The notes beneath the pieces are model-generated. The model ran no database searches, had not been told where the DNA came from, and worked only from the letters and a program-made list of their open reading frames with translations. A DNA stretch of 42,831 nucleotides from an uncultured Gammaproteobacteria bacterium (GTDB lineage: Bacteria > Patescibacteriota > Patescibacteriia > Patescibacteriales > UBA12465). The stretch's first letter is position 1; the number at the start of each line of letters is the position of its first letter. Below are positions 1 to 20,556 of the stretch, piece after piece. The stretch spans positions 10,043 through 52,873 of the forward strand of contig CAYGOK010000003.1 of the NCBI GenBank assembly GCA_964351585.1, read 5' to 3'. Both the position numbers and the translations under genes were made by a program.

Positions 1-629
1 CTCACTTCTTCAATCTTGCCAATTCTTTTTAAATCACGAACAATCATCGCCTTTAGGCTGCCGCAAAATAATCCAGCTGGGCAATCGCTATCAACTACGC
101 AATTCTTAGGTTCTTTAAGTAAACAAGTACCATTAGTTAGCGAGCAGGCCTGATTAGAAGGACATTCGGAGTCCTGTGCACACTTGGTTACCGAGATAGA
201 GCAGGTTGATACCTGGGAAGATAAATTATCATTAAACTTCCAATGAGAAATAATCTGTCCCAAAATATCGGTAGTCATGCTGCTAGAATCTTGATTATAT
301 GAAATCAGATAAATATTGGTATAGATTACTTTTTGAGCCGGGTCAACGTGGGCGGCATTTATATAAACTGTACGTCCATCGCGTAATGCTTCATAGCCAT
401 CAACAGTTAGGGCCTGAGGTGCTCCAGAAAAACCCTGGCTCTGATACCAGCGGTAAACACTGTAGTGGTTGGGATTAGGAATGATACGAATACCAATCGC
501 ATCACTCTCTGTTGTGGGCTGTGCAGCAACGGGATTGTCAGAAGAAAGCAAAACCCCGAAAAGCAAAAGGGCGGTAACAGCCACTAGGCCGACTAACCCT
601 TTCAATTTATTAAATTCTTGATTGACCAT
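1..629 (-). CDS. Secreted Cys-containing protein, N-terminal part only (3' end runs off the left edge); third gene of the surface-protein cluster
   Basis: Not in the ORF track because it is open-ended. My translation from ATG at 629-627: MVNQEFNKLKGLVGLVAVTALLLFGVLLSSDNPVAAQPTTESD...CSISVTKCAQDSECPSNQACSLTNGTCLLKEPKNCVVDSDCPAGLFCGS... The frame stays open to position 1. It has a hydrophobic signal/anchor followed by CxxxxC-type Cys spacing. It starts 10 nt downstream of the stop of the 1928-aa gene. Confidence 0.6.
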   Translation of the reverse strand, partial: MVNQEFNKLKGLVGLVAVTALLLFGVLLSSDNPVAAQPTTESDAIGIRIIPNPNHYSVYRWYQSQGFSGAPQALTVDGYEALRDGRTVYINAAHVDPAQKVIYTNIYLISYNQDSSSMTTDILGQIISHWKFNDNLSSQVSTCSISVTKCAQDSECPSNQACSLTNGTCLLKEPKNCVVDSDCPAGLFCGSLKAMIVRDLKRIGKIEEV

Positions 630-639
630 AAAGAAAAAA

Positions 640-3600
640 TTATCTAACCACACAAGCGCCTGCGACACAAACTTGATTATCGGCACAGGTTATCTTGGAA
701 ATTGTTATTTCATTTGATTTTGCACTTTCATTGCCGGCTGCATCTAAGGCGGATAAAGCAAAGTAATTATCGCCACTACTTAATTGACCAGCGGATAAAG
801 TTAAAGCAGTTGCCCCCTGTTCAGAGTCAAAGGATTCTCCGTATAAAGTGCTACGCGTGCCTCGATAGAGACGAAACGAGGAAGCACTAGTATCGGTGCT
901 CGTCCAATTAAAGCGATAGGAATCACATTTGTTGATTGAAGTTAAGTTAGCCGGAGCTAAAGGCGCCGTTTGATCTGTCGGCGTGGCTGACTTAGTATTA
1001 CTCAACGTACTTTCCGTACGATTGTTAGAAATAACGGAAACACGGAAAGAATATGGTTGATTATTTTTTAAGCCAGAAATAGTGGCAGCGCAAGCAAATT
1101 CTGATCCACCCCAATCACAAGCATCGGCTGCTGTAAACTCTCTAGAAACAGTCGCTGATTTTCCAGTCTCACCATAATAAATTTTAAAACCAACTGACTG
1201 AGCGCTACTGGATTTCCATTCAACTAAAATCTCTCCTCCTGTTTTTTTATCAGTGGCCGCCGTTACTTCTCCGGCTGGCAAAACTGCCTCTCTAAAGAAA
1301 TATGATTCTTTAAGAACGTTCCAAACACAGATGCCATCAGGTAAGCCGTCGCCGTTACGATCATCTCCACAAGAAGAGCCAGCGGCTGAACAAACTGAGC
1401 CATCAGAGCTACAAGCTAAATTAGTGCTCTGTCCTCTAATAACAGCTCTATCAATAATTGCCGGCAAATCATCAAATGTGCCAGGCTGGCCGGCGTCGCG
1501 ACAATAATAAAACTTATAACTAAAGTCCGTGCAAGGCCCACCTAAAGCACCGGTACAGGTATCTGTCCACGGAAACCAGGTGCCATCAATATTAACTGGT
1601 GGCCAAGGATTATTACAAACAAAGACATAGATATTGCTCGCACTAGAAGAATCGTCACCCGTAGAAAAAGCATTGGCACAATTAGCTGTACACTTATCAT
1701 CAGCGCAGACACAGCTTGGACTATAATCTGGATTACTAAGGAAGCGCTCCATGCTAACAGTCGCTGTTAATTTTGTTTCTCCATCAGTAACGCCATTTGC
1801 CGCCGCAACAAAAGCACGATTCATTTCTAAACCATTAACATTAGCAATGGTCACGACTGCGGTATCAAGGACGTTGAAATTCCAGTCCCAGAAATATCCA
1901 GTTACCGGATGCAAAACTTGGCTATCCGCACTAAGCGCCCAAGCAGCAAATACCTTGTCTTTATCTTGAATGGTGTCAAAAGTCTTGTCTAATGGGTTAT
2001 CATCTTTTTCAGCCAAGCTATTATCGGTAGTCTTAAATAAATAAGATACAGGCAACAATCTTACTTGACTGATAGCGCAGACACCAGAATTTTCAGCCTT
2101 ATCAGAAAGTGTTTTAAACTGAATGATATGAGAATTTTTATAATATGTAGTATTAAAAGCTAAGCTTGCCCCCTCAGTTCCGTCCAGGCCCGTTCCATTA
2201 AAGCCAATTCCCTCAATATTAGTTACCCCCAATTGACTATTCAGTTCTTCGTCACCCTTAACAACTAGAAAATAATTGGTATCTGGAGACATTAACTGCC
2301 TAGGCATGACATTAGCCACTGTTCTTTGGCCAGCATGACTACCAGAAACAGCAACCGGAGAAGCACAGTATAGCTTACTAGGGTCCGGAGGGACGGCAAT
2401 CGCGCTTTCATTTTTTGGAAAAAATACGGCCACCACCTGATTCACTGACCTTCTAGCGCTCGAAAATACCCTGGCTAACCAGCCCTCTTTTTTAACTTTA
2501 CCTTCAAAATCATAGGCCATGGTTCCTGCCGGACAAACGCCAGTACCATAATCCATTTCTCTAAGTAGTAAAATATTGGAATTGAAAGTAGCAACATCCA
2601 TTAACTGATCAAAGGTAATATTTAATACTGCATTGCGACAAACATTACTAGCGCCATTAATCGGCAGAGTTTCTATTACATTCGGTCTGGCCTGACAGCA
2701 AGTATCAAAGCCGCAGCCCAATGTTTCGGCATTACCACAATCGCCATCATTCTTACAGCCACAACATAATCCGCGACTAGCACCAGAACAACTTCCTTGA
2801 TCAGCCTTACAATACAAATATGGCGCCTCGGCAGTTTTACAAGCATTAACATCAGTTGGGCTACAGCAACAAGTGCCACAATCAGAAATACCTGTAGCCG
2901 TTGCTCCGCTATCCGTCATGCAGGCCATGTTTGGAAAATTACAAATACTAAAATCACAAGTTGCCGTCATATAAGGAGAGGAGCAATTTTTTCCAGCCCC
3001 ACCATAATTGCCACCGCAACGATCTTGGCAAGTAGTTAAGCTATTGAATGTTCCGGTTGTTCTTGGGATAGCCTCGCAAGTTGCCGGATCTCCTGGAGGC
3101 GTAGCTGCTGGATCACCACAATTATAATAGGCGCAATAACCAGCATCAGCACCAGACGCAATCTGTTCTCCTCCTTGGCACTTAGAAGATGTTTGATTAA
3201 AACAACAAGAAGGAGCGGCTGAACATTCATCTTTATTACCATCAAACAAAGAACAGAAATCAACTCCCTCAGCACAGCCGGTTGTGCAAGTGTCTGTGTT
3301 TTTAAAATAACCAAGCTTAACCGGAGTTGAAGAGGCGCAAGTCGCCGGGTCAGTCGCTGAACAGTTAAAATAACCGCAATAGCCATAATCTGGACTAGCT
3401 GGATCAGAAGAAATTTCTGTGCCCGAACCACCACGACAAATATCATCATCTAAAGATGGGGTTCGTCTAGAATCAAAGCAACAAGCTGCGCTATGATCAG
3501 CACAAGTTGACTGCGTTTTTAAACCAGTACAATCTGAACAAACGCCCTGCGGATTTTCAGCGGTAATGCTGCAATATTGTCCGCCTCGACCAGCACAATT

Positions 3601-6426
3601 ACAGGCAGCGTCATGCTCAGCTTGAGTAGTGCCGACATTAGCACAACCAGAACATTGCCCTAAACCAGCGCCATCATCAGCCTGATCATTACCACAGGTA
3701 CCGGCACATTCTAAAGGAGCACAACAATCTTGAGCACTATTACCAATACGACAACAGCAATCACAACTCGGCGCGTCATAAGCAATACAACGATCAGCGG
3801 CCGCTAAATCAGGATTATCTTCGCAAACTGAACCAGCCGGACAAACCGACCTAGAAACACAACGACCATCAGTTACTACCCTTTCACAAACCAATCCATC
3901 AGTACACAAACTACAAGTTGAATTTTTATCAACACAAATATTATTTACGCCTCTCTCCCAATTATCTGGGCAAGATGTTTGAGTAGAGAATTGCCAGTTG
4001 CCCTCCTGATTACAAGCTACTGTAACCTCAATACTCTGACCACCTAAAGCAAAGGTTTTCTTTTCCGATAAACTACACAAACCATCGGCCCCAGATTTTA
4101 CGCATTTATTAATAGAGGCATCGTAAAAACAAGCTGATGGAAAAGCATTACAGCCGACTACTGAGGCACAAGAATAATCGCAACTACCTACTACTTTTTT
4201 ATTATTTCCTGCATAAGGAGAACAAACGCCGGTTGTATTTGGACAGAATGAACCAACCTGACATGCGCCAGCGTAGGCCGCTAAAGTAGCACAGCTCTCA
4301 GTTGGATCAACTACATCTTTTTTGGCATAGCCAGTACTAAAATTCCATTCAAAAACTGAAGTAGGAATATCAATTAAACAGTCACTTAAACTAGCAACGC
4401 AGCGTCCTTTCTTATAAGTATTAGCTGGACAACAAACTTGTCCGCCTTCACAATTTTCATTAGTAGTACAACTACCAACTTCAAAATTAAGCTCATTGCC
4501 CCATTCGCCATTCTTTACAACTTTAACCGGACCAGTGATAGCCCCTTCAGAAACAGCTGTTGTAATTATATCGGCACCATTTTCTTGACTGATTAAACCT
4601 GAGGTATTTTTATTAACATTAAATTGAACTAAACCATTTTGTCCAACTGACCCAAAGTATTCTCCATAAAGCTTAACGGGCGTGGACACCGCGCCCTGCT
4701 TCGGTTCAATCTTGCACAAGCTAGTCTTTAGAGATAAGGCACTATCAACATTAAAAGAATTGGGGTTAAGCTGGCTAGTATCAATTGTTCCGCTGGCCAA
4801 TTCTACACGAATATAATGATAACCATTAACAGCTGAGGCTGGGACCTTAACAATAATTTGGTTATCACTCCAGACTGAGCTAGCGCAAACTGGTGGAAAT
4901 GCGTAATCAGCTTCAGCGCTTCCAAAGTAAACTTTAGAGTTGCCACGCGCACCACCAAAGCCACTACCAATAATAGTGACGTATTGTCCGGTGCGGCCAC
5001 TATTAGGAGAAAAAGAAACAATAAAGGGCCCATCTCTAGGATCAGACTCTTTGTTAAAATATAGATAATTACTTTTTTCCTGATTACCGCCTAAAGTACT
5101 AATAACAAAACTAGTGGCTTCACCAGATCTTACATTAGGAACACCGGCTGTGCCCGATAGACCGCTGGGATGGCTAAAACCAGAGTTAAGGGCCTGAACA
5201 TTAGTCTTATAACTACCAAAATAAGCTTTACCAGAATACAAACTAATTCCTTGATAAGTCGCTATGGCTCCTAAGCCACCCTGGCTAGGAGTTAATTTAC
5301 ATAAGCCCGGCCTAACTATACTATTAGAAACAAAATCTGGCACCCTGGGACCGTATTCATCATTAGTAGCATCTTCTTTTCCGTCTTGACGAGAAATTTT
5401 AATAGCTCCATTACTGGCGCCTGAAGGAATGGCAATAATAATTTGTTTGTCACTCCAAGAATCAATACAAATTGGATTAATCTCCGAAGGACTGCGTCCT
5501 ATCTGATTTCCACCTAAGAAAACAACCTGACTTAAAACAGGATCATATTCTCCAAAACCCTGACCGAAAATTGTTAAAAAATTATCAGCAGCGCCATTAG
5601 GAGTGTTTTGATTACAGACCGTATTACAACCAGCATCAGTCTGGCAAGATTTATTAATATCTTCCTCACAAAAACCACCTACCGGGCTGATCCCGGTAAT
5701 AACTGGCGGACCAGAGCAGGTGCAAGTATCGGCATCACAAGTCAAAAACTCAGCGCACAAACTATTGTTCGCATCACAAGTCGGCGTACTCTCATCAGCA
5801 TCACAAGAATCACCAGCGGCACCACGCGGCTGACAAGTACAATCAGTCGCACAATAATCCTGAGGCGCACAAATATTATCATCTGCCTGACAACCACCTA
5901 AAATAGAATTGGAATCACAATATTTTTCTGCCGGGTAGCTCGTACAATCAGAGCCGACACAGCCTCCCCAGGAACCAGCTGTACACAACATTGCACCATT
6001 ACAACCACAGGGCCGAGTTGAGCCCTCAATACAGCCACTATCGCCGCCCGTACCACGAGTAGCGTCACTTAATCTATCTAAAACAAAAGAAGCAATTGCC
6101 CAGGACGATAAAATAATTCCTAAACCAATAACTGCGCTAACTAACAATTTTTTAGCTTTAGAAATTTTTTCTTCCTCTCCGGCTGACGTCATCCACAGAA
6201 ATCCAGCATAGATAATCAAGCCCAAGGCGATGACACCCAGTAATCCCAAAGCAACATTAATAATACGAGCAACAATAGCACGTGGATCACTAGTTGATAA
6301 TGAGCCTCCTAGACCAGACGAAACTTCATCAGTACCGAAATTTTGCGCAAAAACTAATCGAAAAGCAAACACTCCGACAAGGATTACGGCAAAAGAAGCT
6401 AGTTGTTTAAATATTCTCTTAGACAC
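640..6426 (-). CDS. Giant (1928 aa) cysteine-rich cell-surface protein: VirB2/TrbC-like pilin-type N-terminal anchor, about 4 IPT/TIG-like domains, a roughly 590-aa hyper-Cys region, an Ig-like (Big_5/SbsA-type) domain and 2 C-terminal FN3 domains
   Basis: Uninterrupted 5.8-kb ORF with an apparent GTG start at 6426. N-terminus: signal peptide (..RLVFAQ|N), then DPRAIVARIINVALGLLGVIALGLIIYAGFLWMTSAGEEEKISKAKKLLVSAVIGLGIILSSWAIASFVLDRL (two TM helices around a charged loop). IPT-like segments, e.g. GPFIVSFSPNSGRTGQYVTIIGSGFGG...IIVKVP. FN3-like segments, e.g. GEILVEWKSS..FKIYYGE..YSFRVSV and PANLTS..YRFNWTS..FRLYRG..YFALSALDAAGNES. About 126 Cys by hand count. Confidence 0.85.
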   Translation of the reverse strand: MSKRIFKQLASFAVILVGVFAFRLVFAQNFGTDEVSSGLGGSLSTSDPRAIVARIINVALGLLGVIALGLIIYAGFLWMTSAGEEEKISKAKKLLVSAVIGLGIILSSWAIASFVLDRLSDATRGTGGDSGCIEGSTRPCGCNGAMLCTAGSWGGCVGSDCTSYPAEKYCDSNSILGGCQADDNICAPQDYCATDCTCQPRGAAGDSCDADESTPTCDANNSLCAEFLTCDADTCTCSGPPVITGISPVGGFCEEDINKSCQTDAGCNTVCNQNTPNGAADNFLTIFGQGFGEYDPVLSQVVFLGGNQIGRSPSEINPICIDSWSDKQIIIAIPSGASNGAIKISRQDGKEDATNDEYGPRVPDFVSNSIVRPGLCKLTPSQGGLGAIATYQGISLYSGKAYFGSYKTNVQALNSGFSHPSGLSGTAGVPNVRSGEATSFVISTLGGNQEKSNYLYFNKESDPRDGPFIVSFSPNSGRTGQYVTIIGSGFGGARGNSKVYFGSAEADYAFPPVCASSVWSDNQIIVKVPASAVNGYHYIRVELASGTIDTSQLNPNSFNVDSALSLKTSLCKIEPKQGAVSTPVKLYGEYFGSVGQNGLVQFNVNKNTSGLISQENGADIITTAVSEGAITGPVKVVKNGEWGNELNFEVGSCTTNENCEGGQVCCPANTYKKGRCVASLSDCLIDIPTSVFEWNFSTGYAKKDVVDPTESCATLAAYAGACQVGSFCPNTTGVCSPYAGNNKKVVGSCDYSCASVVGCNAFPSACFYDASINKCVKSGADGLCSLSEKKTFALGGQSIEVTVACNQEGNWQFSTQTSCPDNWERGVNNICVDKNSTCSLCTDGLVCERVVTDGRCVSRSVCPAGSVCEDNPDLAAADRCIAYDAPSCDCCCRIGNSAQDCCAPLECAGTCGNDQADDGAGLGQCSGCANVGTTQAEHDAACNCAGRGGQYCSITAENPQGVCSDCTGLKTQSTCADHSAACCFDSRRTPSLDDDICRGGSGTEISSDPASPDYGYCGYFNCSATDPATCASSTPVKLGYFKNTDTCTTGCAEGVDFCSLFDGNKDECSAAPSCCFNQTSSKCQGGEQIASGADAGYCAYYNCGDPAATPPGDPATCEAIPRTTGTFNSLTTCQDRCGGNYGGAGKNCSSPYMTATCDFSICNFPNMACMTDSGATATGISDCGTCCCSPTDVNACKTAEAPYLYCKADQGSCSGASRGLCCGCKNDGDCGNAETLGCGFDTCCQARPNVIETLPINGASNVCRNAVLNITFDQLMDVATFNSNILLLREMDYGTGVCPAGTMAYDFEGKVKKEGWLARVFSSARRSVNQVVAVFFPKNESAIAVPPDPSKLYCASPVAVSGSHAGQRTVANVMPRQLMSPDTNYFLVVKGDEELNSQLGVTNIEGIGFNGTGLDGTEGASLAFNTTYYKNSHIIQFKTLSDKAENSGVCAISQVRLLPVSYLFKTTDNSLAEKDDNPLDKTFDTIQDKDKVFAAWALSADSQVLHPVTGYFWDWNFNVLDTAVVTIANVNGLEMNRAFVAAANGVTDGETKLTATVSMERFLSNPDYSPSCVCADDKCTANCANAFSTGDDSSSASNIYVFVCNNPWPPVNIDGTWFPWTDTCTGALGGPCTDFSYKFYYCRDAGQPGTFDDLPAIIDRAVIRGQSTNLACSSDGSVCSAAGSSCGDDRNGDGLPDGICVWNVLKESYFFREAVLPAGEVTAATDKKTGGEILVEWKSSSAQSVGFKIYYGETGKSATVSREFTAADACDWGGSEFACAATISGLKNNQPYSFRVSVISNNRTESTLSNTKSATPTDQTAPLAPANLTSINKCDSYRFNWTSTDTSASSFRLYRGTRSTLYGESFDSEQGATALTLSAGQLSSGDNYFALSALDAAGNESAKSNEITISKITCADNQVCVAGACVVR
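2931..3483 (-). repeat. Two tandem, diverged Cys-rich repeat units of about 80-92 aa inside the giant gene
   Basis: Unit 1 starts at CCFDS (3483) and unit 2 at CCFNQ (3207). Shared skeleton: CCF..C.GG...GYC.Y(F/Y)NC...DPATC...G.F...TC...C. Unit boundaries are approximate. Confidence 0.6.
6070..6426 (-). repeat. Copy 1 of the paralogous N-terminal signal peptide plus two-TM pilin-like module (see 8752-9099)
   Basis: Residues 1-119 of the 1928-aa protein align without gaps from DPRAI to LDRL with the 887-aa protein. Roughly 70% aa identity by eye, with clear nucleotide similarity (e.g. tatgc.gg.tt..tgtggatgac). Confidence 0.8.
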
Positions 6427-6435
6427 AAGTTTATA

Positions 6436-9099
6436 TTATTGGCAGTTGCCATTTTCATCTAAATTATTAGAAGGAGATCCAAAACAACAAGATGGATTTT
6501 CCCAAGTAGCCTCACAGCTTGGACCTGAACTAGGTTTAAAACAATTTTGATAAACGTCTTTAACACCAGAGCCGGCCTGAGAAATATAAGAAAGTGATTC
6601 TGAAAATAAAGAATGTTTAATCTGGGCTACTGTTAAGTCAGTCACACCGTCTAAAGGAGAAACGTCCTTGTCCTCAGAGGTTATCCAATAACCCAGGGGA
6701 GAGGCAGCAGCACTCTTCAAATTAATGAATTTATGCTCCGTAGCAGTCTGACCATTATTCAAAATTTTGCTACCAGACCTAAGTGTACTAGACATCATTA
6801 AGGTATTAAAAGTAATTTCCACCGGATCAGTTAAAGCGGTAATGTCTGTTTGTCCATTGTTTGGCGTAATAGCGGTAATGCGTGGCGAAGATAGCTCTTT
6901 TTGGTCATTAACAAAGAAGGAGAAGCGGTAACTATCTTTATTATCAACTACACCATTATTCTCATTGAAATAAGAGATTGGCCCATCAGCCGCAGTATCA
7001 CGATTACCATCTAAAGAATTGAAGGCGGTATCAGTAATGCCACTCATCGTTGCAATGTTGGCCAGTGGATAGTTTCTCTGTCCTGCGTCTTGGCAGGTAC
7101 GATAACCGAGCGGGCTCATAACACAAGATCTATAAGGACTAAAGGCGGCGCAATCTTGATCGCTCGCACAAGTTTTTAAATCTGCAGCTTTAATTTCTAG
7201 AGCTAAGTTACTATTTGGCGGCAAACAATAAACCTTTTCACCGCAACCATTAATTCCACATTCATTATCAGAAATAAATTCAACTGTTTTGTAACCATTA
7301 GAAATCATAAACTGTCCATTTACATAACTGCCGACGCAGGAACCGCCGTCACATTTATAGGAAAGGCATTCGGAATTGATAGCACAAGCAGTGCCAGCTG
7401 ATTTGCCGCCATTAGCATTTACTAAACGAATATAAGAAGACACGTCGCTAGCGGAACCAGAAAGCGTAGCTGGGTTCATGGCCTCATTAAAGGTCACCTT
7501 GATGGCCGCGTTCATTGGCACATCTTTCTTATCATTAATAACATAGGTAATTCGTTGATCAGCGCCACCAGAAAACTGGGTTAGACCAAGAGCGCTACTA
7601 TTACTAGTGCTGAGGGCTAATCCATTAGCAGCGCTTCCGGCTACTTTAGCCGTCAATGAAACACGACTACCGGTACGAGTTACGTTCACATCGGGGTGGC
7701 CGCTTAACTTAGCCTGGATATCAGCCGCTTGATTATCCGCATTGCAGGTACCAGTCCGAACGATAATATTATTATTTTCACCAGTAGCAGCAAAGACATA
7801 TTTAACATTGCCAACCGTTAGAGTGTCGGCCAATTGTTCAGGGGTAATTTCTATTTCCCAGGAATTACCAGCAGCATGACTATCGGCTTTTAAGCTAAAA
7901 TATCCATCAAAAGTTACTCTATGGTCGGAAGTAAAATCAGCCACGCCCAATAAGGCATTAGTGTTACGATTAAATAGTTGGGCACGATTAGGCTCGTCCG
8001 CTGGGACGGAAACCATGAAACGATTTATTACGCCATGATAATCTAATGTTACCTCGGCTCCCGGGGTAACTCGATTTAACACAGCTGGTATATATACTCT
8101 TGGACAACCATTAACAAATATTTCTGCAGTTGCGTTAGCTGAGACAGTGCTCACCCCAATTTGATCTTGAAGATTATCAGGGCGAGGAAATATAGAACGA
8201 GCAACCACTTGTGGCGGGGTTAAATCTAAACGAGAACCAACTTCAAAACCCCAAACAAGCTCACTTGCGCTACAGGTTCTAAACATAGAGGAGCCATCTG
8301 CCTTCTTTAAATCTGAAGTTATTTTTACGGCATAATCAGTATTAGCCTCTGCTGAACCAAGATAGCTTAAAGGAGAAAATATCAGTGTTCTCTTATCGGC
8401 TGATATAGCTACAGCGACATCGGTAACATTAGAATTTGGGTTTGGACAGTTAACACCACAGGCATCATTTAATTCCTGCTTATATATTCTAATTGTCTTA
8501 GGATTAATTAAAGAGCAGGCGCCATTATCACAAGCGCAAGGACTGCCACCAGCATCCACACAAGCAGAAGCGGCATCAATTTCTTCTTTAAAAGTAACAA
8601 TTATAGAAGTATTTCTAGGTACATCACGCTGATTGCTTTCTGGGTAAACAGTTTGAACTGAGCAGGAGCCAATAGCCCCTAAACCAGCACTAAAATTATT
8701 TCCTGAATAAGCTCCAGGTTGATTAACGCCGTTACCAGAGATAGCACTCATTAATCTATCTAACAAGAAGGTGGTAATTGCCCAAGAAGATAAAATAATC
8801 ACTAAACCAATAACTGCGTTCTTAAGAATATTTTTTGCATTTCTAATTTTCTCCTCTTCGCCGCCAGAAGTCATCCACAAAAAGCCGGCATAGATTATTA
8901 AGCCAAGAGTAACGACACCAAGTAAGCTTAAGGCGACCTGAATAATACGCCCAATAATAGCTCGTGGGTCACTAGAAGACAAAGCGATTGTGCTTTCAAT
9001 CGGATCTAAACCGAAATCTTGCGCTAGAGAGATTTTAGCAGTCAGCAAAACTACTGATGCCAAAAAAAAGCCGAAAATTATCTTGAATCTTTTCAACAT
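6436..9099 (-). CDS. Large (887 aa) secreted surface protein: VirB2/TrbC-like pilin-type N-terminal anchor followed by several Ig-like (Big_5/SbsA-type) domains and Cys-knot-like segments
   Basis: ATG at 9099. N-terminus: MLKRFKIIFGFFLASVVLLTAKISLAQ|D...DPRAIIGRIIQVALSLLGVVTLGLIIYAGFLWMTSGGEEEKIRNAKNILKNAVIGLVIILSSWAITTFLLDRL. Repeated pattern 'P..g..dVp.n..I.vtF.e.m...t', e.g. VYPESNQRDVPRNTSIIVTFKEEID, NDKKDVPMNAAIKVTFNEAMNPATL and ITPNNGQTDITALTDPVEITFNTLM. About 30 Cys. The stop lies 9 nt before the next gene. Confidence 0.85.
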   Translation of the reverse strand: MLKRFKIIFGFFLASVVLLTAKISLAQDFGLDPIESTIALSSSDPRAIIGRIIQVALSLLGVVTLGLIIYAGFLWMTSGGEEEKIRNAKNILKNAVIGLVIILSSWAITTFLLDRLMSAISGNGVNQPGAYSGNNFSAGLGAIGSCSVQTVYPESNQRDVPRNTSIIVTFKEEIDAASACVDAGGSPCACDNGACSLINPKTIRIYKQELNDACGVNCPNPNSNVTDVAVAISADKRTLIFSPLSYLGSAEANTDYAVKITSDLKKADGSSMFRTCSASELVWGFEVGSRLDLTPPQVVARSIFPRPDNLQDQIGVSTVSANATAEIFVNGCPRVYIPAVLNRVTPGAEVTLDYHGVINRFMVSVPADEPNRAQLFNRNTNALLGVADFTSDHRVTFDGYFSLKADSHAAGNSWEIEITPEQLADTLTVGNVKYVFAATGENNNIIVRTGTCNADNQAADIQAKLSGHPDVNVTRTGSRVSLTAKVAGSAANGLALSTSNSSALGLTQFSGGADQRITYVINDKKDVPMNAAIKVTFNEAMNPATLSGSASDVSSYIRLVNANGGKSAGTACAINSECLSYKCDGGSCVGSYVNGQFMISNGYKTVEFISDNECGINGCGEKVYCLPPNSNLALEIKAADLKTCASDQDCAAFSPYRSCVMSPLGYRTCQDAGQRNYPLANIATMSGITDTAFNSLDGNRDTAADGPISYFNENNGVVDNKDSYRFSFFVNDQKELSSPRITAITPNNGQTDITALTDPVEITFNTLMMSSTLRSGSKILNNGQTATEHKFINLKSAAASPLGYWITSEDKDVSPLDGVTDLTVAQIKHSLFSESLSYISQAGSGVKDVYQNCFKPSSGPSCEATWENPSCCFGSPSNNLDENGNCQ
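8752..9099 (-). repeat. Copy 2 of the paralogous N-terminal pilin-like module
   Basis: Residues 1-116 of the 887-aa protein. See 6070-6426. Confidence 0.8.
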
Positions 9100-9157
9100 T
9101 TTTTCCCAGGAGGTCTTTAAAAATACTCCTTTTAATGCTATACTTTATTATGCTTTT

Positions 9158-9166
9158 ATTATAACA
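9158..9166 (-). promoter_or_regulatory. Candidate extended -10 promoter element (TGTTATAAT) for the surface-protein operon
   Basis: The plus strand reads attataaca, so the minus strand reads TGTTATAAT, about 59 nt upstream of ATG 9099. It lies in the 93-nt divergent intergenic region shared with the rel gene. Confidence 0.4.
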
Positions 9167-10656: not shown

Positions 10657-10664
10657 AGATGTTA

Positions 10665-10705
10665 ACACAAAAAACGCCCCCATTTGGGGGGCGTTTTTAT
10701 TTTAT
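10665..10705. terminator. Bidirectional rho-independent terminator between convergent rel and rpsU
   Basis: aaaaaaCGCCCCC-attt-GGGGGGCGttttt: GC stem (10675-10681 / 10686-10693) flanked by an A-run and a T-run. Confidence 0.7.
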
Positions 10706-10717
10706 AGAAGCAAAAAT

Positions 10718-15157: not shown

Positions 15158-18145
15158 TTATACCTGACGAAATTCACAGATAGAATTAAAGTCACAATAC
15201 TTACACATCATTGATGGCGTTGGCGCAAAGTTACGATTCTTAATTGCGGTGATTTCTTCAATAATTCCTAATTTTAATTTATCAATTTCTTTTTCTGTCG
15301 CCACGAAGGAAATTTTATTACCGGTTTCTAAATAATAAAAACTAAGCTGTCCTACCTTCTCGCCTAAAAATTCCTCTAAGAAAACTTGGTATAAAATTAG
15401 CTGACGCTTCTCCTCAAATGTAAGTTTATCTTTTCCCTTACCCGTTTTATAGTCAACTACCTCTAAGCAACCATCGGCTAAGCGATCGACACGGTCAATT
15501 GTTCCCTTAATAATATTACCACCGATCTTAAAAGAGAATTTCTTTTCTAAAAAAATAGTTTCCGCAGGCGGAGCTGATTGATAGTTACTTAGAAAATCTT
15601 TTAAAGCCTTTTTACCGTTCTGATAATACTTATCTCGCTCTTCTTTGTTATTATAGCCATCGGCCTGCCAAAATTCTTCATACAAAGACAACAGTCTTTT
15701 TTCGCTTAAATCAATCTTTTTAACAGACTTTCCCTCCTCGTCAGAAAACAAGCTAGCCTGCAGCTTCTTGGCCTCAGCTAAAGTCGGTAATAAAAAATTA
15801 TATAAAGTATTATGCAAGACACGACCAAAAATAAGAGACGATTTATCAGTTGAGGCTGGAATTTTTAAAATAAAAGCGAATTTATACTGCAAGGGACAAG
15901 TAGAAAATGCCGCCAGCTGAGAAAAAGAAAACTTAGCCGGCAGCGGCAAGACAATATCTTTATCTTGATTAATCCTTTCTGCTTCTTCTAGTTCATTTAA
16001 ACGATGTAAGTCTTTCAAAAAAGCATTTTGCTTACTGAGCTGTGCCTCCTCGCTTACTAACTCTGGATTTATGCCCATTTCTAAAATAAAGCGAGATGGT
16101 TTTTTTTCTCTAGTGCCACCATAATCCTTAGCACCAGTTAAGTACAACTCTTCTTTGGCTCTAGTTGCTGCCACATAGAACAATCTACGCTCTTCCTCTA
16201 AATGCGCATCAACTGAAACTGTAATTTTTTCCTTAATAAGCGCCTCGGGAATAGAAATTTTTTCACTTCGGGCAATCGTGGGAAATTTTTTATCTACTAA
16301 ATTAACAATAAAGACGTATTTAAACTCTAAGCCCTTAGCACCGTGTACTGTCATAATTCTAACACTCTCATTGTCGGTAAAATCGAGCTTTAAAGAACCG
16401 GTTTCGCCCGCTTCAAGCTCCAAGTTAATTACTTCTAAAAAATCTTTCAATCGTAAATCAGAATTACCATCTTCCAATGTTTTTATTTTTTGATAAAGCT
16501 GATTTAAATAAGAAAATAATTCTAAATCTCTATCATGATCTAATTTTTCTAGCAGCCCAGAGTCATAGGCAAAGTGTAAGAAAATCTTGGTTGGCCTACT
16601 TTTAACAGCAAGTGCGGAGTGTGCCTCAATTAAACCAAGCAATTTAGTAATATTTTTTTCACTCTCTGGTGAGATGCTCTTAATTAAGCGCACATTTTTC
16701 AAGGCTTCATATAAAGACCAGACTTTACGAGCTGCCAACTTATTTATTTCTACTAGTTCAGAATGAGAAACCTTAAAGGTATCCATATTTAAAACTCGAA
16801 ACAAGGCAGAAGATTCATGGTAGTTATCCAACAATCTAAAATAAGCAAGAATATCAAGAATAATTGGCTTATAATAGAGACCGCGCCAAGACATAAAACG
16901 ATGAGGAATGCTTAGGCGACTCAACTCTTTAACATAAGCATCAGCCGTATCATTAGCCCTAACTAAAATTGCAAGGTCTAGCCAGCTAACTTCTTCACCT
17001 TGAGAAATTTTTTCTTCATAAATATCTTTAATGCGCTGACCAACAAAAGAGACCTCATCTTCTTGAGTGGGAAAATTAAAAAAGCGTACCGCTGGGGCAG
17101 AATATTTTTTAATACTCACTTCACCTTTAGCTACTAATTTTTTATCAAGACCAAGTTTAACCTCTAAACGATTTGGATTATTATGTTTAATAAAATCATG
17201 AGACCTGTCTAAAATTTCTTGGCGAGAGCGATAATTCTCGGTTAATATTATTTCCTTAGCCCCGGGATAATCAGATTTAAACTGCATGATATTAGAGATA
17301 GAAGCGCCGCGAAATTTGTAAATTGCTTGATCGTCGTCACCAACTACCAATAAGTTATTTTGTGGCGCCGCTAATAGTTTTACTAATTCATACTGAGCTA
17401 AATTAGTATCCTGAAACTCATCAACCATGATAAATTTAAATTTACCGCGATAGTATTTCAAAATATTTGGCCTATCTTTAAAAAGTTTAATAGCATAAAC
17501 AATTAAATCACCAAAATCGAGGTAATTATTTTCAATCAGTAACTGATTGTACGTATTATAAGCACCGGCCAACTCTTTAATCCGAACCGCCTCCAGCCCG
17601 TCATCATCTTCATCATCAGCATGCTCTGAAACTTCTGAATTTTCCGCGTGCTTTATATACTCAAAAGCTGAAATATCTTCATCCTTCAAGCGAGAAAAAT
17701 GCTTAAGTAATTCGGAAATAAATTTAGTCGGATTTCCTAATGGTCGATAATAATCCAGTTGAAAGCGTGCTAAATTTCTTTTAATCATTACCCATTGATC
17801 GGTTGCTGATAATAACTTAAACCCGGGATTAAGGCCTATTTCTAAAGCATGGTCGCGCAAAATACGTTCGCAGAAACCATGAAAAGTATTAATCCATAAA
17901 TCCGTGTAACCATAAGGTAAAATAATATCAGCCCGCTCTTCCATTTCACCAGCTGCTTTTTCGGTAAAAGTTAAAAGCAGAACTTCGTCAGGAGAAACCT
18001 TTTTAACAGTTAAAAGATGTGCCAAGCGATTTATTAAAACCGTGGTCTTACCAGTACCAGCACCAGCCACAATTAAAAGCGGGCCATTCTCATGAGTAAC
18101 GGCTGCTTTTTGTGCGCTATTTAATTTTGCTAGTGATTCAGACAT
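15158..18145 (-). CDS. UvrD/PcrA-family SF1 helicase fused to a C-terminal PD-(D/E)xK, Cas4/AddB-like 4-Cys nuclease domain
   Basis: Helicase: [64 protein letters not shown] and [11 protein letters not shown]. Nuclease: [27 protein letters not shown]...[13 protein letters not shown] and [10 protein letters not shown] (C...CxxCxxxxxC). Confidence 0.85.
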
Positions 18146-18165
18146 AAATTTTAATATTTTCTTGG

Positions 18166-19281
18166 CTAACGCGACAATTCTAACTTACCACTAGCCACCG
18201 CCTGCGCTTCAATCTCTTCTAAGTTAGACCAGGTAATGAACTTTTTAAAAAAGCTTGCCTGTTCTACTTGACTCATTAAACGAGGAGCAGATTTTTCAGA
18301 ATTAAGCGGAAATAAAACTACAGTCGTTGTTGCCGAACTAAAGTCTAATCTAACTGCCAAGCCTTCTTGAGTATCTTTAGAAAAATATTGATCAAAAATA
18401 AAATTTCCTAAAGAATAAAAAATGGGCTTTCCTTGATAAATTTCCATTCCTTGTACAACATGAGGGTGATGACCGATTATAACATCGGTGCCGGCATCTA
18501 TCAAGGCGTGTCCGATATTTTGCTGATAGCGGTTAAATTGGTGCTCGTACTCTGTTCCCCAGTGAATATTAACTATGACTAAATCAGTGGTTGAGGCTGC
18601 TGAGCTTATTAATTCTTTGGCTTTTTCTAAGTCAAAATTGGCATAAACCATTGATAATCCCATTAGGGCGACCTTTTGACCAGATATTTCTACAATCTGT
18701 AGTGAGTACTCGTCGACCTGAGCATCAGGGGCTCCGCTATAATAAAAATTTAGCGCCTGTAAATTTTTCCTTGTCTCTTCTACGCCTCTAGTTCCTTGGT
18801 CACTAAAATGATTATTAGCTAACGTAAAATAATTGAAGCCGTAATCATAAAGTTCGGCGACTCTTTCGGGAGAAAAAGCAAAATCATAAGCATTCTGCGG
18901 CAAGTAGTGCGCGCCATCATCAGTGACCGCGCCCTCCAGGTTAGCACCGACGATATCGAATCCGGAAAAAAATTGTTTATCTTCACCCGCTAAACCATCT
19001 AATAGAAACCCGATATTTTTCCCTGCCAATCTCTCGCCAACATGACGATCGAGCATCATATCGCCAAAAAAAAGGAATTTAAGATCTCGATTACCCATTA
19101 ATGCTAGGTCGAGGTTTTGACTGGGTGTGTAATCCACCTTTTTATCTGCGATGTTTTCTTGGATATCGACTTCAACTTTTAAATTTTCTCCAGTCGAGTT
19201 AAGAGCATAAAAGGCAGCAGCAATAGCAACTATTATCAAAACTGAGCTAAATGTTATTATCCATAACCCGCGCTCCTTCAT
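18166..19281 (-). CDS. CapA/PgsA-family metallophosphatase-fold protein (poly-gamma-glutamate synthesis-type), membrane anchored
   Basis: N-terminal TM helix. FFGDMMLDRHV, ANLEGAVT, LANNHFSDQG, VNIHWGTEYEH and IIGHHPHVVQG...YSLGNFIFDQ. Confidence 0.8.
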   Translation of the reverse strand: MKERGLWIITFSSVLIIVAIAAAFYALNSTGENLKVEVDIQENIADKKVDYTPSQNLDLALMGNRDLKFLFFGDMMLDRHVGERLAGKNIGFLLDGLAGEDKQFFSGFDIVGANLEGAVTDDGAHYLPQNAYDFAFSPERVAELYDYGFNYFTLANNHFSDQGTRGVEETRKNLQALNFYYSGAPDAQVDEYSLQIVEISGQKVALMGLSMVYANFDLEKAKELISSAASTTDLVIVNIHWGTEYEHQFNRYQQNIGHALIDAGTDVIIGHHPHVVQGMEIYQGKPIFYSLGNFIFDQYFSKDTQEGLAVRLDFSSATTTVVLFPLNSEKSAPRLMSQVEQASFFKKFITWSNLEEIEAQAVASGKLELSR

Positions 19282-19290
19282 ACAAAAAGT

Positions 19291-20556
19291 TTAAAACTTT
19301 AATATTTTTTTTAACTCTCCTTCTTTTAATTTACCAATACCAGCTAAATTTAAACTGGAGTTAACAAATATTTTATTAGCCGTCTTACGTAAATCAGTTG
19401 CTGAAACTTTTTTTATTTTCTTTAAAAATTCTTCAGGGCTGAACAATTGTCCACGCAAAACTGCTTGTCGGGCATACCAGTTAGCCAGATTATCGCTTGC
19501 CTCCATCTGTAAGAACATGCGTCCCTGCAACAAATCTTTAGCACGTGTTAACTCTTCATCAGAAACCAATTCCTCTTTCAAGCGCGCATATTCCGCAAGA
19601 ATAATTCCTATTGCTTTGGAAACTTTATCAGTTGGTACGCCTGCTTGAGTAGAAAGATAGCCAGAGTCAGTATAAAATTCTGTATCAGTTTTTACATAAT
19701 AAGCCAAACCGTTACGCTCCCTAAGATTAATAAATAATCTTGAGCTCATTGCGCCACCTAAAATAACTGCCAAGAGCTTAGCGTTAAGCTCTTCACCGTG
19801 ACCGATGGGGAAAGTGCGGACCGCTAAAGAAATATTAGCCTGGTCAGTATCTTTAAAAACTATTTTAACTTGAGGAGCAGCTTGTTTATAAACATTTTTA
19901 ACTTGTTTCTTCCACTTATTTGCTCCGAGCTTATTTATAATCTCTCGTCCCTTTTTAATGTCGCGATCTTTAATTCCACCAGCCAGGACCAGGGTTACAC
20001 TCTTGGCGCCATACTGCGAACGGAAATAAGATATAAAATCCTGACGGGTAAAATTCTGAATATTTTCCTTAGTACCAATCGTGTCCCAGCCCGCTGGAGT
20101 ATCACCAAATAAACAACGCTCCAAAACATCCTCAATGTGCATCATCGGATTGTCCTCATACATATTTAGCTCTTCAATAATCACCCCTTTTTCTCTTTCA
20201 ATTTCTTCCTTATCAAACTTGGAATGCAAAATCATGTCCCCTAGGATATCCAAAGCTTCAGCTAGTTTATTTTCCGCTGCCTTGACCCAGTAACCCGTAT
20301 ACTCCTTAGAGGTAAAGGCGTTAAACTCGCAACCAAGAGCATCTAAAGCGCTGGAAATCATGAGAGTGTCCGGTCTATTCTCCGTGCCCTTAAAAAACAT
20401 ATGCTCAAGAAAGTGGGAAATCCCACTATTTTTTCTAGTCTCATAGCGGGAGCCGGTCTTAAATACCATTAAGGCGGTCGTGGTTTTAGCTCCTGGCACC
20501 GGAACTGTTATAATCGGCGCCTTATTTGACAAAACTATTCTTTTGTATTTATTCAT
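19291..20556 (-). CDS. M16 (pitrilysin/insulinase) family zinc peptidase
   Basis: Inverted zinc motif HxxEH in GISHFLEHMFFKGT, with a downstream E (EREKGVIIEE). Two-domain length of 421 aa. Confidence 0.85.
   Translation of the reverse strand: MNKYKRIVLSNKAPIITVPVPGAKTTTALMVFKTGSRYETRKNSGISHFLEHMFFKGTENRPDTLMISSALDALGCEFNAFTSKEYTGYWVKAAENKLAEALDILGDMILHSKFDKEEIEREKGVIIEELNMYEDNPMMHIEDVLERCLFGDTPAGWDTIGTKENIQNFTRQDFISYFRSQYGAKSVTLVLAGGIKDRDIKKGREIINKLGANKWKKQVKNVYKQAAPQVKIVFKDTDQANISLAVRTFPIGHGEELNAKLLAVILGGAMSSRLFINLRERNGLAYYVKTDTEFYTDSGYLSTQAGVPTDKVSKAIGIILAEYARLKEELVSDEELTRAKDLLQGRMFLQMEASDNLANWYARQAVLRGQLFSPEEFLKKIKKVSATDLRKTANKIFVNSSLNLAGIGKLKEGELKKILKF

Follow-up and report, generated by a model that had tools for sequence, protein, structure and literature searches.

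The minus-strand operon at the left end of the analysed window (the whole stretch of 42,831 nt) encodes, as we are modestly inclined to believe, a surface fibre or a complex for adhesion, anchored in the membrane and built on modular pilins, with gene 3 as a variable tip. The defining feature of genes 1 and 2, missed in the earlier note, is the T4SS_pilin (VirB2/TrbC-like) module with which both open. Falkowbacteria-type Patescibacteria (class ABY1) carry the operon on the chromosome as a conserved trait in single copy, and roles in host contact, in an S-layer or in pilus display are candidate readings of its sequence.

According to the ORF calls, the part of the operon that lies within the window is its promoter and its first 2.2 genes (Table 1). 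The earlier note had described three close minus-strand ORFs, 9-10 nt apart, as a three-gene operon filling about 21% of the window. The gaps (9 nt at 6427-6435 between genes 1 and 2; 10 nt at 630-639 between genes 2 and 3) and the share (9099/42831 = 21%) were re-derived from the ORFs, and the number of three proved to be a truncation at the window edge, beyond which the co-directional block extends to six or seven genes in related loci. The proposed leftward extension completed gene 3 (1298 aa) at 15798..19694 of the near-identical contig L001, which shows a single mismatch to the window across the common 209 aa, and brought up additional members behind it. Specifically, three or four small membrane proteins are encoded 3' of gene 3, two of them with TSP3 calcium-binding repeats: a bitopic protein of ~100 aa (40 loci), a TSP3 membrane protein (43 loci), a second TSP3 membrane protein and, in 11 loci, a membrane protein of ~62 aa. 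The operon is bordered by divergent RelA on one side and convergent ClpP on the other, and its neighbours in the window are housekeeping genes, as had been noted (RelA/SpoT, HisRS, signal peptidase I, QueA, RuvB, UvrD-like, GyrA and others). The GC3 of the operon genes equals that of these neighbours, indicating that they are native.

Table 1. Features of the operon within the window
Feature	Position	Strand	Description
Extended -10 TGTTATAAT	9166..9158	-	operon promoter element; sequence read and conservation
Gene 1 5' leader	9100..9157	-	conserved columns in alignment
Leader motif A..TA.CA	9144-9136	-	window sequence AGTATAGCA; conserved alignment columns
Candidate local hairpin GGAG/CTCC	9129-9126 / 9112-9109	-	in gene 1 leader
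Leader motif TTTAAAG	about 9121-9115	-	consensus ATTTAAAAG; conserved alignment columns
Gene 1	6436..9099	-	887 aa, ATG start; modular T4SS_pilin protein (ORF calling, Pfam)
Gene 1 predicted signal peptide	9022..9099	-	aa 1-26; hydrophobic segment aa 7-25
Gene 1 pilin-type two-helix hairpin	8740..8967	-	aa 45-120, loop GGEEEK
Gene 1 ectodomain	6439..8679	-	aa 141-887; string of Ig-like beta domains, invariant Cys; Big_5 x3
Gene 2	640..6426	-	1928 aa, GTG start; modular T4SS_pilin protein (ORF calling, Pfam)
Gene 2 pilin-type hairpin	6064..6285	-	aa 48-121; PF18895 match aa 52-115
Gene 2 IPT/TIG region	4477..5706	-	aa 241-650; conservation 0.68
Gene 2 central Cys-rich scaffold	2692..4476	-	aa 651-1245; 6-15 Cys/100 aa, mostly 10-15
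Gene 2 C-terminal region	712..2691	-	aa 1246-1905; Big_5, conserved motif region, two FN3
Gene 3, partial	3..629	-	ATG at 629, N-terminal 209 codons; exits window

The single candidate extended -10 already recognised at 9158-9166 is phylogenetically kept: TGnTAnAAT was present at 71/77 orthologous loci, in most of them 66-69 nt ahead of the start codon of gene 1, and the TG-n-TATAAT positions were invariant in an alignment of 29 sequences. When the region was scanned generically for promoters and terminators, there was no excess over shuffled controls. RNAalifold returned no consensus structure for the gene 1 leader, so the GGAG/CTCC hairpin remains a candidate.

The N-termini of genes 1 and 2 carry three hydrophobic segments, a predicted signal peptide and then a two-helix hairpin; the export-type N-termini described in the earlier note are thus present, but in these two genes the export signal is not a single segment, since the pilin hairpin follows it. 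PF18895 scored above the gathering threshold in both gene 1 (46.6 bits; cut-off 26.6) and gene 2 (35.2 bits), and the two modules are 68% identical. All sampled modules matched PF18895 (21/21), and 9/21 also matched TrbC/VirB2 (PF04956). Each locus contains exactly two pilin-module ORFs. In gene 1, the PF18895 match covers aa 47-112, the AF2 helices span 45-76 and 82-120, the hydrophobic segments of the hairpin span 52-70 and 95-113, and D44, R46, S78, K84 and W106 are its polar invariants. Cleavage of gene 1 is predicted between SLA and QD from the AXA motif, and in the homologue alignment A26 was invariant and F29/G30 almost invariant. Export, cleavage and topology of the gene products are likewise predictions from hydrophobicity and this motif.

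The hairpin is the best-conserved part of both proteins, and the signal peptide is among the least conserved. Majority-residue frequencies reached 0.73-0.83 in the hairpin, whereas the signal peptide stood at 0.50, the linker at 0.43 and the ectodomains at 0.57-0.68 (0.66 for that of gene 1, against 0.73-0.83 in its own hairpin), and identity to the window across species was 64-65% in the module and 48-50% in the ectodomains. Because the hairpin is conserved above the ectodomains and far above the signal peptide, it may be more than a greasy anchor and may make specific protein contacts, for which its paralogue and an assembly machine, for instance the T4SS known from this class, are candidate partners.

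The pilin module stands at the head of 29,282 protein clusters, many being Cys-rich giants of 3000-4978 aa; the architecture is therefore recurrent, and the fusion of a pilin module to a giant protein is common in the phylum. Among the 147 closest pilin-module clusters, 24 contain proteins of 3122-4978 aa with 3-5% Cys, so that the earlier view of disulfide-dense giants as unusual may hold for bacteria generally but not among relatives of this module. In the literature, we found no paper describing such a fusion of the module to a giant Cys-rich protein. The module profile found no VirB2 or TraA structure by sequence among solved structures, and therefore the tie to pilus-forming pilins rests on Pfam membership and fold type. 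No T4SS genes (VirB4, VirB6, VirB3 or coupling protein) were found in the window or among the called genes of five related loci. Falkowbacteria are listed under class ABY1 with a "Yes" in the last column of a published genome table, which we take to mean that VirB4 is present (PMC12102498), and in another class of Patescibacteria, T4SS-pilin-domain proteins are among the highest-expressed signal-peptide genes (PMC10936435).

Gene 1 has 467 homologues, and relatives are contained in 226 species genomes; the best 120 of the 467 are 870-921 aa long, with 97-100% query coverage and 49-100% identity. Besides the module, Pfam identified three Big_5 domains (64.5 bits), and the AF2 model (pLDDT 77) is nearly all-beta past residue 148. 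Its best Foldseek matches were the S-layer proteins SbsC (E 3.7e-8), Sap and EA1 and the adhesin SdrE, with TM-scores of ~0.1. In one annotation, the gene 1 start was called differently, giving 875 instead of 887 aa.

Gene 2 has 429 homologues; most of the 120 listed cover 95-100% of the query, with identities of 43-100%. Its Pfam matches beyond the module were TIG (49 bits; one match, aa 467-552), Big_5 (26.4 bits; aa 1246-1308) and fn3 (23.3 bits, slightly below the cut-off of 25; aa 1727-1802). Judged by eye from sequence blocks in the translation, the IPT/TIG region may be read as about three repeats. The central scaffold (aa 651-1245) matched no Pfam family. Between Big_5 and the FN3 pair, the C-terminal region contains the conserved motif NPWPP...YYCRDAG...DDLPAI. 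In the AF2 model of aa 1240-1928 (pLDDT 65), the FN3 pair was confident and the conserved motif region fell below pLDDT 40, so that no fold is assigned to the most conserved motif of this region; Foldseek matched this model to Ig/FN3 ectodomains only.

Gene 3 has one N-terminal hydrophobic segment, and neither Pfam nor hydrophobicity revealed a pilin module in it. Its N-terminal ~700-750 aa are conserved in 59/59 loci, and its C-terminal ~550 aa are variable and Cys-rich. Some orthologues contain a Beta_helix domain. One species, represented by locus L029, is missing the gene.

Cys content is 2.9%, 6.5% and 6.2% in genes 1, 2 and 3, respectively, versus 0.78% in the other 27 ORFs, and the ectodomains are therefore probably disulfide-rich. 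The Cys totals are even throughout (26, 126 and 80). Nearly every Cys of genes 1 and 2 is invariant among homologues (65 sequences for gene 2), including essentially all in the gene 2 scaffold. The Big_5, IPT/TIG, FN3 and dense-Cys modules named in the earlier note were recovered, fn3 below its cut-off, with PF18895 in addition. Its statement that catalytic motifs are lacking agrees with Pfam and NCBIfam, which gave no enzymatic domain for seven operon proteins, and with Foldseek, where the gene 1 and gene 2 C-terminal models matched only Ig/FN3-type structures (S-layer proteins, adhesins and other Ig modules). Sequence searches of the PDB found no relatives. LPXTG, lipobox and type IV prepilin motifs were not found in the operon proteins, and anchoring must therefore be N-terminal.

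Genes 1, 2 and 3 are collinear in 58-59/79 species-level loci, and nearly all remaining loci end at a contig end or are without a detected gene 3. The synteny search proposed in the earlier note, which had counted lack of joint conservation against its reading, found the triad together in every long-enough locus except L029, and this objection therefore fails. Named genomes with the collinear block are Candidatus Falkowbacteria (class ABY1), and the CPR-type genome suspected earlier is that of a Falkowbacteria-like member of Patescibacteria. That the genes represent an assembly artefact, a chimera or decaying pseudogenes is hardly credible. We found no support for it, the irregularities being limited to the GTG start of gene 2 and the alternative gene 1 start in one annotation; against it stand the conserved MxKKxK N-termini and a codon-position GC normal for the genome. 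It is effectively refuted by an identical 1928-aa protein on three contigs from separate assemblies (NCBI and ENA) and by full-length, constant-length collinear orthologues with invariant Cys in dozens of species.

Genes 1 and 2 can be described as modular pilins, each comprising a putative cleavable signal peptide, a VirB2/TrbC-like hairpin, a short variable linker and a 750-1800-aa ectodomain. The Sec pathway and signal peptidase I would place the hairpin in the membrane so that its two ends face outward and its charged loop (GGEEEK) faces the cytoplasm, and the hairpins would keep both giant ectodomains tethered to the cell surface. Gene 3, with a signal peptide or signal anchor, would dock on these ectodomains through its conserved N-terminal ~700 aa and point outward its hypervariable Cys-rich C-terminus, which is a candidate for setting the specificity with which other cells or surfaces are contacted. 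The small bitopic proteins that carry TSP3 calcium-binding repeats might lend the complex support at the level of the membrane or the wall. From the conserved gene order and the 9-10-nt spacing, we infer that the gene products interact physically. The interpretation in the earlier note is supported in part, but its host-contact apparatus is a candidate only: with ~50% identity over their full length, genes 1 and 2 do not resemble most host-specific adhesins, which typically evolve fast, and variation is confined to the last ~550 aa of gene 3. The same identity weighs against the adhesion complex favoured here.

It is possible, though unlikely, that genes 1-3 form an S-layer-like lattice of the kind seen on ultra-small groundwater bacteria, a structural core envelope component and no host-contact device, in which hairpins would replace SLH or wall-binding domains. 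Luef and colleagues reportedly observed S-layers on groundwater CPR cells by cryo-TEM in 2015. The SbsC, Sap and EA1 matches of the gene 1 model, the strongly conserved promoter and the downstream calcium-binding TSP3 partners are consistent with a lattice, and a single-copy operon among housekeeping genes, with conserved order and protein lengths, fits a core role better than an accessory adhesin. However, TM-scores of ~0.1 point to a generic Big_5/Ig string, also seen in SdrE and in L,D-transpeptidase Ig domains, and Pfam and NCBIfam revealed no SLH, CWB2 or other S-layer anchoring family. Gene 3, moreover, is missing in L029 and hypervariable at its C-terminus, and Cys-rich S-layer proteins are, to our knowledge, atypical.

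We consider it improbable that genes 1 and 2 are true T4SS pilus components, their hairpins being extracted from the membrane by the Patescibacteria T4SS and either built into a VirB2-type pilus or placed as its cap, where giant ectodomains at the outward C-terminus would decorate the filament or form an adhesive tip. PF18895 membership and the PF04956 cross-matches argue for it, and the strong conservation of the hairpin with its polar invariants suggests packing or machine recognition. Epitopes fused to the C-terminus of F-pilin are exposed at the surface of the pilus. T4SS loci occur in class ABY1, reviews regard a Patescibacteria T4SS pilus as plausible and essential for epibiotic growth (PMC12857230), and an analogy is offered by modular type IV pilins, among them Streptococcus sanguinis PilB (PMC8179133). 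Nevertheless, a homopolymeric VirB2-type helix has no steric room for an appendage of 750-1800 aa on every subunit, and the subunits could be incorporated only sparsely or at the end. Neither a T4SS gene nor a small pilin gene lies near the operon (window and 79 loci), the sequence profile detects no solved pilin, and a module heading so many very different clusters fits general display or anchoring better than a dedicated subunit. A secreted enzyme or toxin system attacking host envelopes is very improbable: hydrolase or toxin domains could hide in ~400 aa of gene 2 (aa ~1310-1715, where AF2 confidence is low) and in most of gene 3, which are without family assignment, and the Beta_helix domain of some gene 3 orthologues could be read likewise, but the enzyme and toxin family searches, PDB searches and Foldseek results all speak against it, and conserved positions are mainly Cys, Gly, Pro and aromatics, typical of structural scaffolds.

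Compared with known systems, the modular pilins of genes 1 and 2 share with VirB2/TrbC-type pilins the signal peptide, a hydrophobic hairpin whose two helices are joined by a short charged loop, membership of PF18895 and, in part, cross-matches to PF04956. Arrays of VirB2-like pilins occur in the same phylum, as in Southlakia epibionticum (Quinonero-Coronel et al. 2025, PMC12102498), with class ABY1 among the carriers of T4SS loci; the reported arrays comprise 2-11 pilin genes, and genes 1 and 2 likewise form a tandem of paralogues. Array pilins are small, average 25% identity within arrays and are often encoded near virB4 (PMC12102498), whereas genes 1 and 2 carry 750-1800-aa ectodomains, have modules 64-65% conserved between species and 68% identical mutually, and lie in a housekeeping neighbourhood without a T4SS gene. 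Type IV pilins form an unrelated superfamily, marked by one N-terminal helix and by a signal peptide of class III, a motif that is absent here. Streptococcus sanguinis PilB (PMC8179133) follows the same principle of a pilin module fused to an adhesive C-terminal module; the appended modules of genes 1 and 2 are far larger than in modular type IV pilins, and their incorporation into a filament is a candidate only. The Gram-positive S-layer proteins SbsC (Geobacillus) and Sap/EA1 (Bacillus anthracis) are elongated Big_5-type Ig-like chains like the gene 1 model, which differs in having no SLH domain, no sequence similarity and TM-scores of ~0.1; the operon proteins also differ from them in Cys-richness and N-terminal membrane-hairpin anchoring. 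PrgB-type adhesins of Gram-positive conjugation systems are LPXTG wall-anchored and encoded within the transfer locus, unlike the operon proteins, which have no LPXTG motif. PrgB-like adhesins are large Ig-rich surface proteins tied to monoderm T4SSs for cell-cell contact, and PrgB homologues are reported absent from Patescibacteria (PMC12102498). The predator Vampirococcus lugosii (Moreira et al. 2021, PMC8080830), also of the Patescibacteria and with a reduced genome, belongs to a different lineage (Absconditabacteria) and is likened to genes 1-3 by description only; the passages concerned mention no pilin-module anchoring, Cys-richness or conserved operon. Giant membrane proteins are already known in CPR from Vampirococcus, where several membrane-localised proteins, 1392-4163 aa long and bearing domains of the PKD, fibronectin and integrin types, are proposed to form a fibrous surface for host recognition (PMC8080830).

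In Falkowbacteria-type Patescibacteria, the locus is an operon, native and conserved, whose six or seven co-directional genes encode exported or membrane proteins; two of these are modular T4SS_pilin proteins with giant, cysteine-rich Ig/TIG/FN3 ectodomains. The ORFs, gaps, Pfam domains and cysteine counts bore out the earlier note's three tightly spaced, cysteine-rich minus-strand genes (genes 1, 2 and 3) at the left edge of the window. The gaps between genes 1 and 2 and between genes 2 and 3 are 9 and 10 nt, and the three-gene block fills 21% of the window. Pfam identified three Big_5 domains in gene 1 and TIG and Big_5 in gene 2, confirming the modules proposed earlier, with fn3 in gene 2 staying sub-threshold; only weak Cys-motif matches were found in the gene 3 fragment. 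Cysteine accounts for 2.9%, 6.5% and 6.2% of the gene 1, 2 and 3 products, compared with 0.78% across the remaining 27 window ORFs, and the counts are even in all three (26, 126 and 80). The surrounding genes were annotated as housekeeping, as had been read from the sequence, and tRNA and Rfam scans of the window gave no matches. The G+C content is 0.41-0.43 in the operon region (window 1-9099) versus 0.34-0.40 in the remainder (9100-42831). This excess lies wholly at codon position 2 (0.46-0.52 versus 0.31-0.38), reflecting proteins rich in Gly, Ala, Cys, Ser, Thr and Pro, and GC3 is the same as in the neighbours. The operon genes are therefore native, and horizontal transfer was ruled out as the source of the raised G+C.

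Features of the operon and its surroundings (window coordinates unless a related locus is named)
Feature	Position	Strand	Description
Gene 3 (window)	ATG at 629, off the left edge	-	partial ORF
Gene 2	640..6426	-	complete ORF, 1928 aa, GTG start
Gene 1	6436..9099	-	complete ORF, 887 aa, ATG start
Gene 1 5' leader	9100-9157	-	two conserved motifs
Leader motif ATTTAAAAG	about 9121-9115	-	conserved
Leader motif A..TA.CA	9144-9136	-	conserved
Predicted extended -10, TGTTATAAT	9166..9158	-	upstream of gene 1
Small ORF between RelA and HisRS	10659-10970	+	103 aa
Overlapping alternative small ORF	about 10718-10948	-	
MshEN/T2SSE protein	36585-39599	+	1004 aa
Translin-family protein	39617-40192	+	PF01997, 63.6 bits
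Gene 3, complete	L001, 15798-19694		1298 aa
Downstream gene 1 of 4	L001		95-aa bitopic protein; homologues after gene 3 in 40 related loci
Downstream gene 2 of 4	L001		249-aa membrane protein with TSP3 calcium-binding repeats; 43 loci
Downstream gene 3 of 4	L001		62-aa membrane protein; 11 loci
Downstream gene 4 of 4	L001		second TSP3-repeat membrane protein; about 30 loci
Locus L029	CAZYNT010000002.1, about 18577-20908		gene 3 missing; ~100-aa bitopic gene directly after gene 2

Elsewhere in the window, the MshEN/T2SSE protein combines an MshEN domain with two T2SSE (GspE/PilB-type) ATPase stretches. Its two P-loops lie near aa 305 and aa 750, and it resembles a fused double secretion/pilus ATPase. 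A Translin-family protein, seemingly unusual in a bacterial genome, is also encoded. Of the alternative small ORFs between RelA and HisRS, the plus-strand one had no Pfam match; related contigs carry a conserved 75-77-aa gene on the HisRS strand, overlapping the HisRS end.

The operon had been taken to comprise three genes, but it extends further. L001, a near-identical contig that differs from the window at a single residue over the 209 aa of gene 3 found in both, carries the complete gene followed by four others. Two long contigs show the limits of the co-directional block: a divergent RelA/SpoT gene upstream and a convergent ClpP gene, then SecD/SecF, downstream. Whether the triad is ever conserved together had been raised in the earlier note; among the 79 related loci kept, genes 1-2-3 are collinear in every long-enough locus except L029, so at least one lineage can do without gene 3. 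Each of the 79 loci has exactly two pilin-module ORFs and none has a small pilin gene. The operon is also present in the complete 977-kb Falkowbacteria chromosome CP066698.1.

The proposed extended -10 proved to be conserved as well. Of 77 loci, 71 have TGnTAnAAT, in most cases 66-69 nt upstream of the start codon, and an alignment of 29 sequences shows no variation at the TG-n-TATAAT positions; this is good comparative evidence that the predicted promoter is real. A generic promoter scan missed it because it has no -35 match; that scan found 25 sites, not above the 19.3±3.9 of shuffled controls, and a generic terminator scan was likewise not above its controls (11 versus 8.7±3.1). The leader can form a GGAG/CTCC hairpin in the window, and other stems occur at the same spot in some relatives. 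RNAalifold on 29 leaders gave no consensus structure, so this hairpin is unsupported as a conserved element. The conserved promoter and leader provide a handle for expression studies.

Searches with gene 1 returned 467 homologues, the best 120 of which are 870-921 aa long, with 97-100% query cover and 49-100% identity, and all carry both PF18895 and Big_5. They are named "pilin" or "Ig-like domain-containing protein" at NCBI and come from Patescibacteria and Candidatus Falkowbacteria MAGs. For gene 2, 429 homologues were found; the best 120 are mostly 1800-2300 aa, most with 95-100% query cover and 43-100% identity, and are named "IPT/TIG domain-containing protein". In a scan of one genome per GTDB species, gene 1 relatives occurred in 226 species. 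Median identities to the window were 76% for RelA, 77% for RuvB, 67% for HisRS, 59% for QueA, 50% for gene 1, 49% for gene 2 and 44% for gene 3. Many operon-bearing MAG records (loci L005, L011, L012, L014 and others) are titled "uncultured Gammaproteobacteria bacterium"; this title is an apparent placeholder or mislabel, because their housekeeping genes show 75-96% identity to those of Falkowbacteria-like genomes.

Genes 1 and 2 had been read as starting with a simple export signal. Instead, each product has three hydrophobic segments (aa 7-25, 52-70 and 95-113 in gene 1; aa 9-27, 55-73 and 94-112 in gene 2), and T4SS_pilin (PF18895) lies on the second and third. The scores of 46.6 bits (gene 1, aa 47-112) and 35.2 bits (gene 2, aa 52-115) exceed the gathering threshold of 26.6 bits, and the gene 1 module in isolation scored 51.8 bits. 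All 21 modules sampled from gene 1 and gene 2 orthologues and other module-bearing proteins matched the family. Gene 3 has a single N-terminal hydrophobic segment and no PF18895 match in Pfam. In both module-bearing proteins, a predicted signal peptide precedes two hydrophobic helices with a short charged loop between them, as in VirB2/TrbC-type pilins; in the AF2 model of gene 1, the helices span aa 45-76 and 82-120 and the loop is GGEEEK. A conserved A26|Q motif suggests cleavage of the signal peptide.

The tests against named pilin families were less uniform. PF04956 (TrbC/VirB2) was matched by 9 of the 21 modules (best E 5.2e-5), the gene 1 module of the window not being among them, and precomputed PF04956 matches exist in a few orthologues. 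An NCBIfam search of genes 1-2 gave sub-threshold matches only, including NF045849, the Mbov_0395 family of pilin-like conjugal transfer proteins from Mycoplasma ICEs, at 36.8 and 38.7 bits, just below the curated cut-off of 40 bits. A profile of the module searched against the PDB found no solved pilin, only spurious matches to designed "Pizza" repeat proteins, so that the module would be tied to pilus-forming pilins by family membership and fold type rather than by demonstrated equivalence. A sortase-anchored adhesin, which would end in an LPXTG-type motif, a hydrophobic segment and a charged tail, was ruled against, as no LPXTG-like motif turned up in genes 1-3 by regex search and the Cys-rich C-termini have no hydrophobic tail. 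A type IV (T4P/T2SS) pilin, with its class III signal peptide and single N-terminal helix, was also ruled against: residues 1-60 of each of the three proteins lack the G|F/M-T-L-I-E motif, and Pfam found no type IV pilin family. No lipobox was found in genes 1-3.

In orthologue alignments of genes 1 and 2, conservation peaks at the hairpin in both proteins, with a majority-residue frequency of 0.73-0.83, followed by the ectodomain regions (0.57-0.68), the signal peptide (0.50-0.52) and the linker (0.43-0.45). Between the gene 1 and gene 2 modules the identity is 68%, and nearly all cysteines are invariant. A plain anchor should drift much as the signal peptide does, and the hairpin does not; specific contacts of the hairpin are therefore probable. 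That genes 1 and 2 are so strongly conserved also argues for a structural core rather than specificity determinants. The first 700-750 aa of gene 3 align in 59/59 loci, compared with only 3-33% of the 59 for its Cys-rich C-terminal ~550 aa. Its orthologues range from about 900 to 1660 aa, with Beta_helix, He_PIG or CarboxypepD_reg added in some.

The AF2 model of gene 1 (pLDDT 77; 64-sequence alignment) has four parts, namely a signal-peptide helix, the helical hairpin, a disordered linker and a nearly all-beta Ig-like chain. Its top PDB matches in Foldseek were the S-layer proteins SbsC, Sap and EA1, followed by the adhesin SdrE, L,D-transpeptidase Ig domains and CopC. For gene 2 aa 1240-1928, AF2 gave a poor model (pLDDT 65; 14-sequence alignment), with a confident tandem FN3 pair and with pLDDT < 40 over the conserved motif region NPWPP...YYCRDAG...DDLPAI; its Foldseek matches were Ig/FN3 ectodomains only. 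Searching PDB sequences with genes 2 and 3 and with a gene 1 profile found nothing useful.

When the 96-aa module of gene 1 was searched exhaustively, 29,282 protein clusters (50% identity) were retrieved at E ≤ 1e-3, and the number at E ≤ 1e-10 was 7,947; the best 147 of the 29,282 were analysed in detail. In 92 of these 147, the module is single and always N-terminal. By length, 23 of the 92 single-module clusters are 200-800 aa, 16 are 800-1200 aa, 14 are 1200-3000 aa and 24 are 3122-4978 aa; the other 15 are <200 aa, and some of these stop within or just past the module and may be contig-end fragments rather than small pilins. The median cysteine content climbs with length from 0.7% to 4.5%. 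After the module, one giant carries Big_5, Big_7 and TIG, and another TIG, LVIVD and Laminin_G_3. The remaining 55 of the best 147 clusters (P0241-P0387) have tandem modules in 2-8 copies, for example P0245 (820 aa, 8 copies) and P0262 (1775 aa); no mention of such "poly-pilin" proteins was found in the literature reviewed. The architecture of module plus giant ectodomain is widespread in the phylum, and the operon proteins are already in databases under generic names. With the module at the head of about 29,000 clusters of every size, "pilin" counts in these genomes merge small true pilins with surface-display fusions.

VirB2-like pilins and T4SSs are common in Patescibacteria and were needed for epibiotic growth in the single species tested (PMC12102498, PMC12857230, PMC11665869). 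The accessible part of a T4SS survey counts PF18895 VirB2-like proteins across 1,948 assemblies, describes 441 arrays in which 2-11 small, divergent pilin genes are grouped, and places Falkowbacteria in class ABY1 with a "Yes" in the last column of its genome table, read as VirB4 present; no mention of fusions to giant ectodomains was found in that part (PMC12102498). In a T4SS review, the Southlakia epibionticum pilin array is taken to hint at a pilus in a monoderm (PMC12857230). In Paceibacteria enrichments, T4SS-pilin-domain proteins were among the top-expressed signal-peptide genes (PMC10936435), and giant membrane proteins proposed to make a fibrous surface are described for Vampirococcus in the accessible part of PMC8080830. 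Freshwater-specific structure clusters are dominated by PF18895. Giant VirB2-module fusions and this conserved operon appear to be undescribed in the searchable literature, mostly non-subscription papers.

On balance, we favour a surface fibre or adhesion complex, with modest confidence. The hairpins would anchor the gene 1 and 2 ectodomains on the outer face of the single membrane, gene 3 would dock onto these ectodomains and present its variable tip, and the TSP3 proteins would brace the assembly. A role in host contact is compatible with the data. An S-layer-like envelope lattice, to which the SbsC, Sap and EA1 matches of the gene 1 model point, is unlikely, since these matches, with SbsC at E 3.7e-8, have TM-scores of only about 0.1, indicating generic Ig-chain similarity, and no SLH or CWB family was found in genes 1-2 by Pfam or NCBIfam. 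A hidden enzyme or toxin function is very improbable; no catalytic motif had been seen earlier, and Pfam and NCBIfam found no enzymatic family in any of the seven operon products. An assembly artefact is scarcely credible.

It is also rather doubtful that the operon proteins are built into, or cap, a T4SS pilus. PF18895 in both proteins and PF04956 in 9/21 modules speak for it, but no T4SS family was found among the 27 other window ORFs or the called genes of five related loci (L001, L003, L004, L084 and L085), and the profile retrieved no solved pilin. In its most speculative form, which we hold to be improbable, the VirB2-type hairpin would have turned into a general display module, with a T4SS-like machine extracting modular pilins and building or capping a pilus with giant disulfide-rich ectodomains; the Falkowbacteria operon would then be the conserved core and the gene 3 C-terminus the host-specificity tip. 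If true, such a decorated pilus would be a conjugative-type filament in a monoderm and would account for T4SS and pilin genes being essential in epibiotic growth.

The module may be a major route for attaching large proteins to the surface of wall-bearing single-membrane cells, and the operon products could explain what cryo-EM has revealed on ultra-small bacteria, be it surface fibres, S-layers or host-contact structures. In a large lineage, the pilin module heads giant Ig-rich, Cys-rich surface proteins of a conserved operon, which offers two conserved anchors, one variable-tip protein and calcium-binding partners as candidates for experiments.

A VirB2/TrbC-type pilin is a small mature protein of roughly 60-120 aa consisting of the hairpin alone, whereas the gene 1 and gene 2 products, of 887 and 1928 aa, continue for 767 and 1807 residues beyond the hairpin and are thus not small pilins. 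VirB2/TrbC-type pilins are encoded in a T4SS locus beside virB3/virB4/virB6, whereas the 27 other window ORFs and the called genes of the five related loci gave no T4SS family. SbsC/Sap-type S-layer proteins join an SLH or equivalent wall anchor to a self-assembling Ig-like chain, and genes 1-2 share with them only the generic Ig-chain fold.
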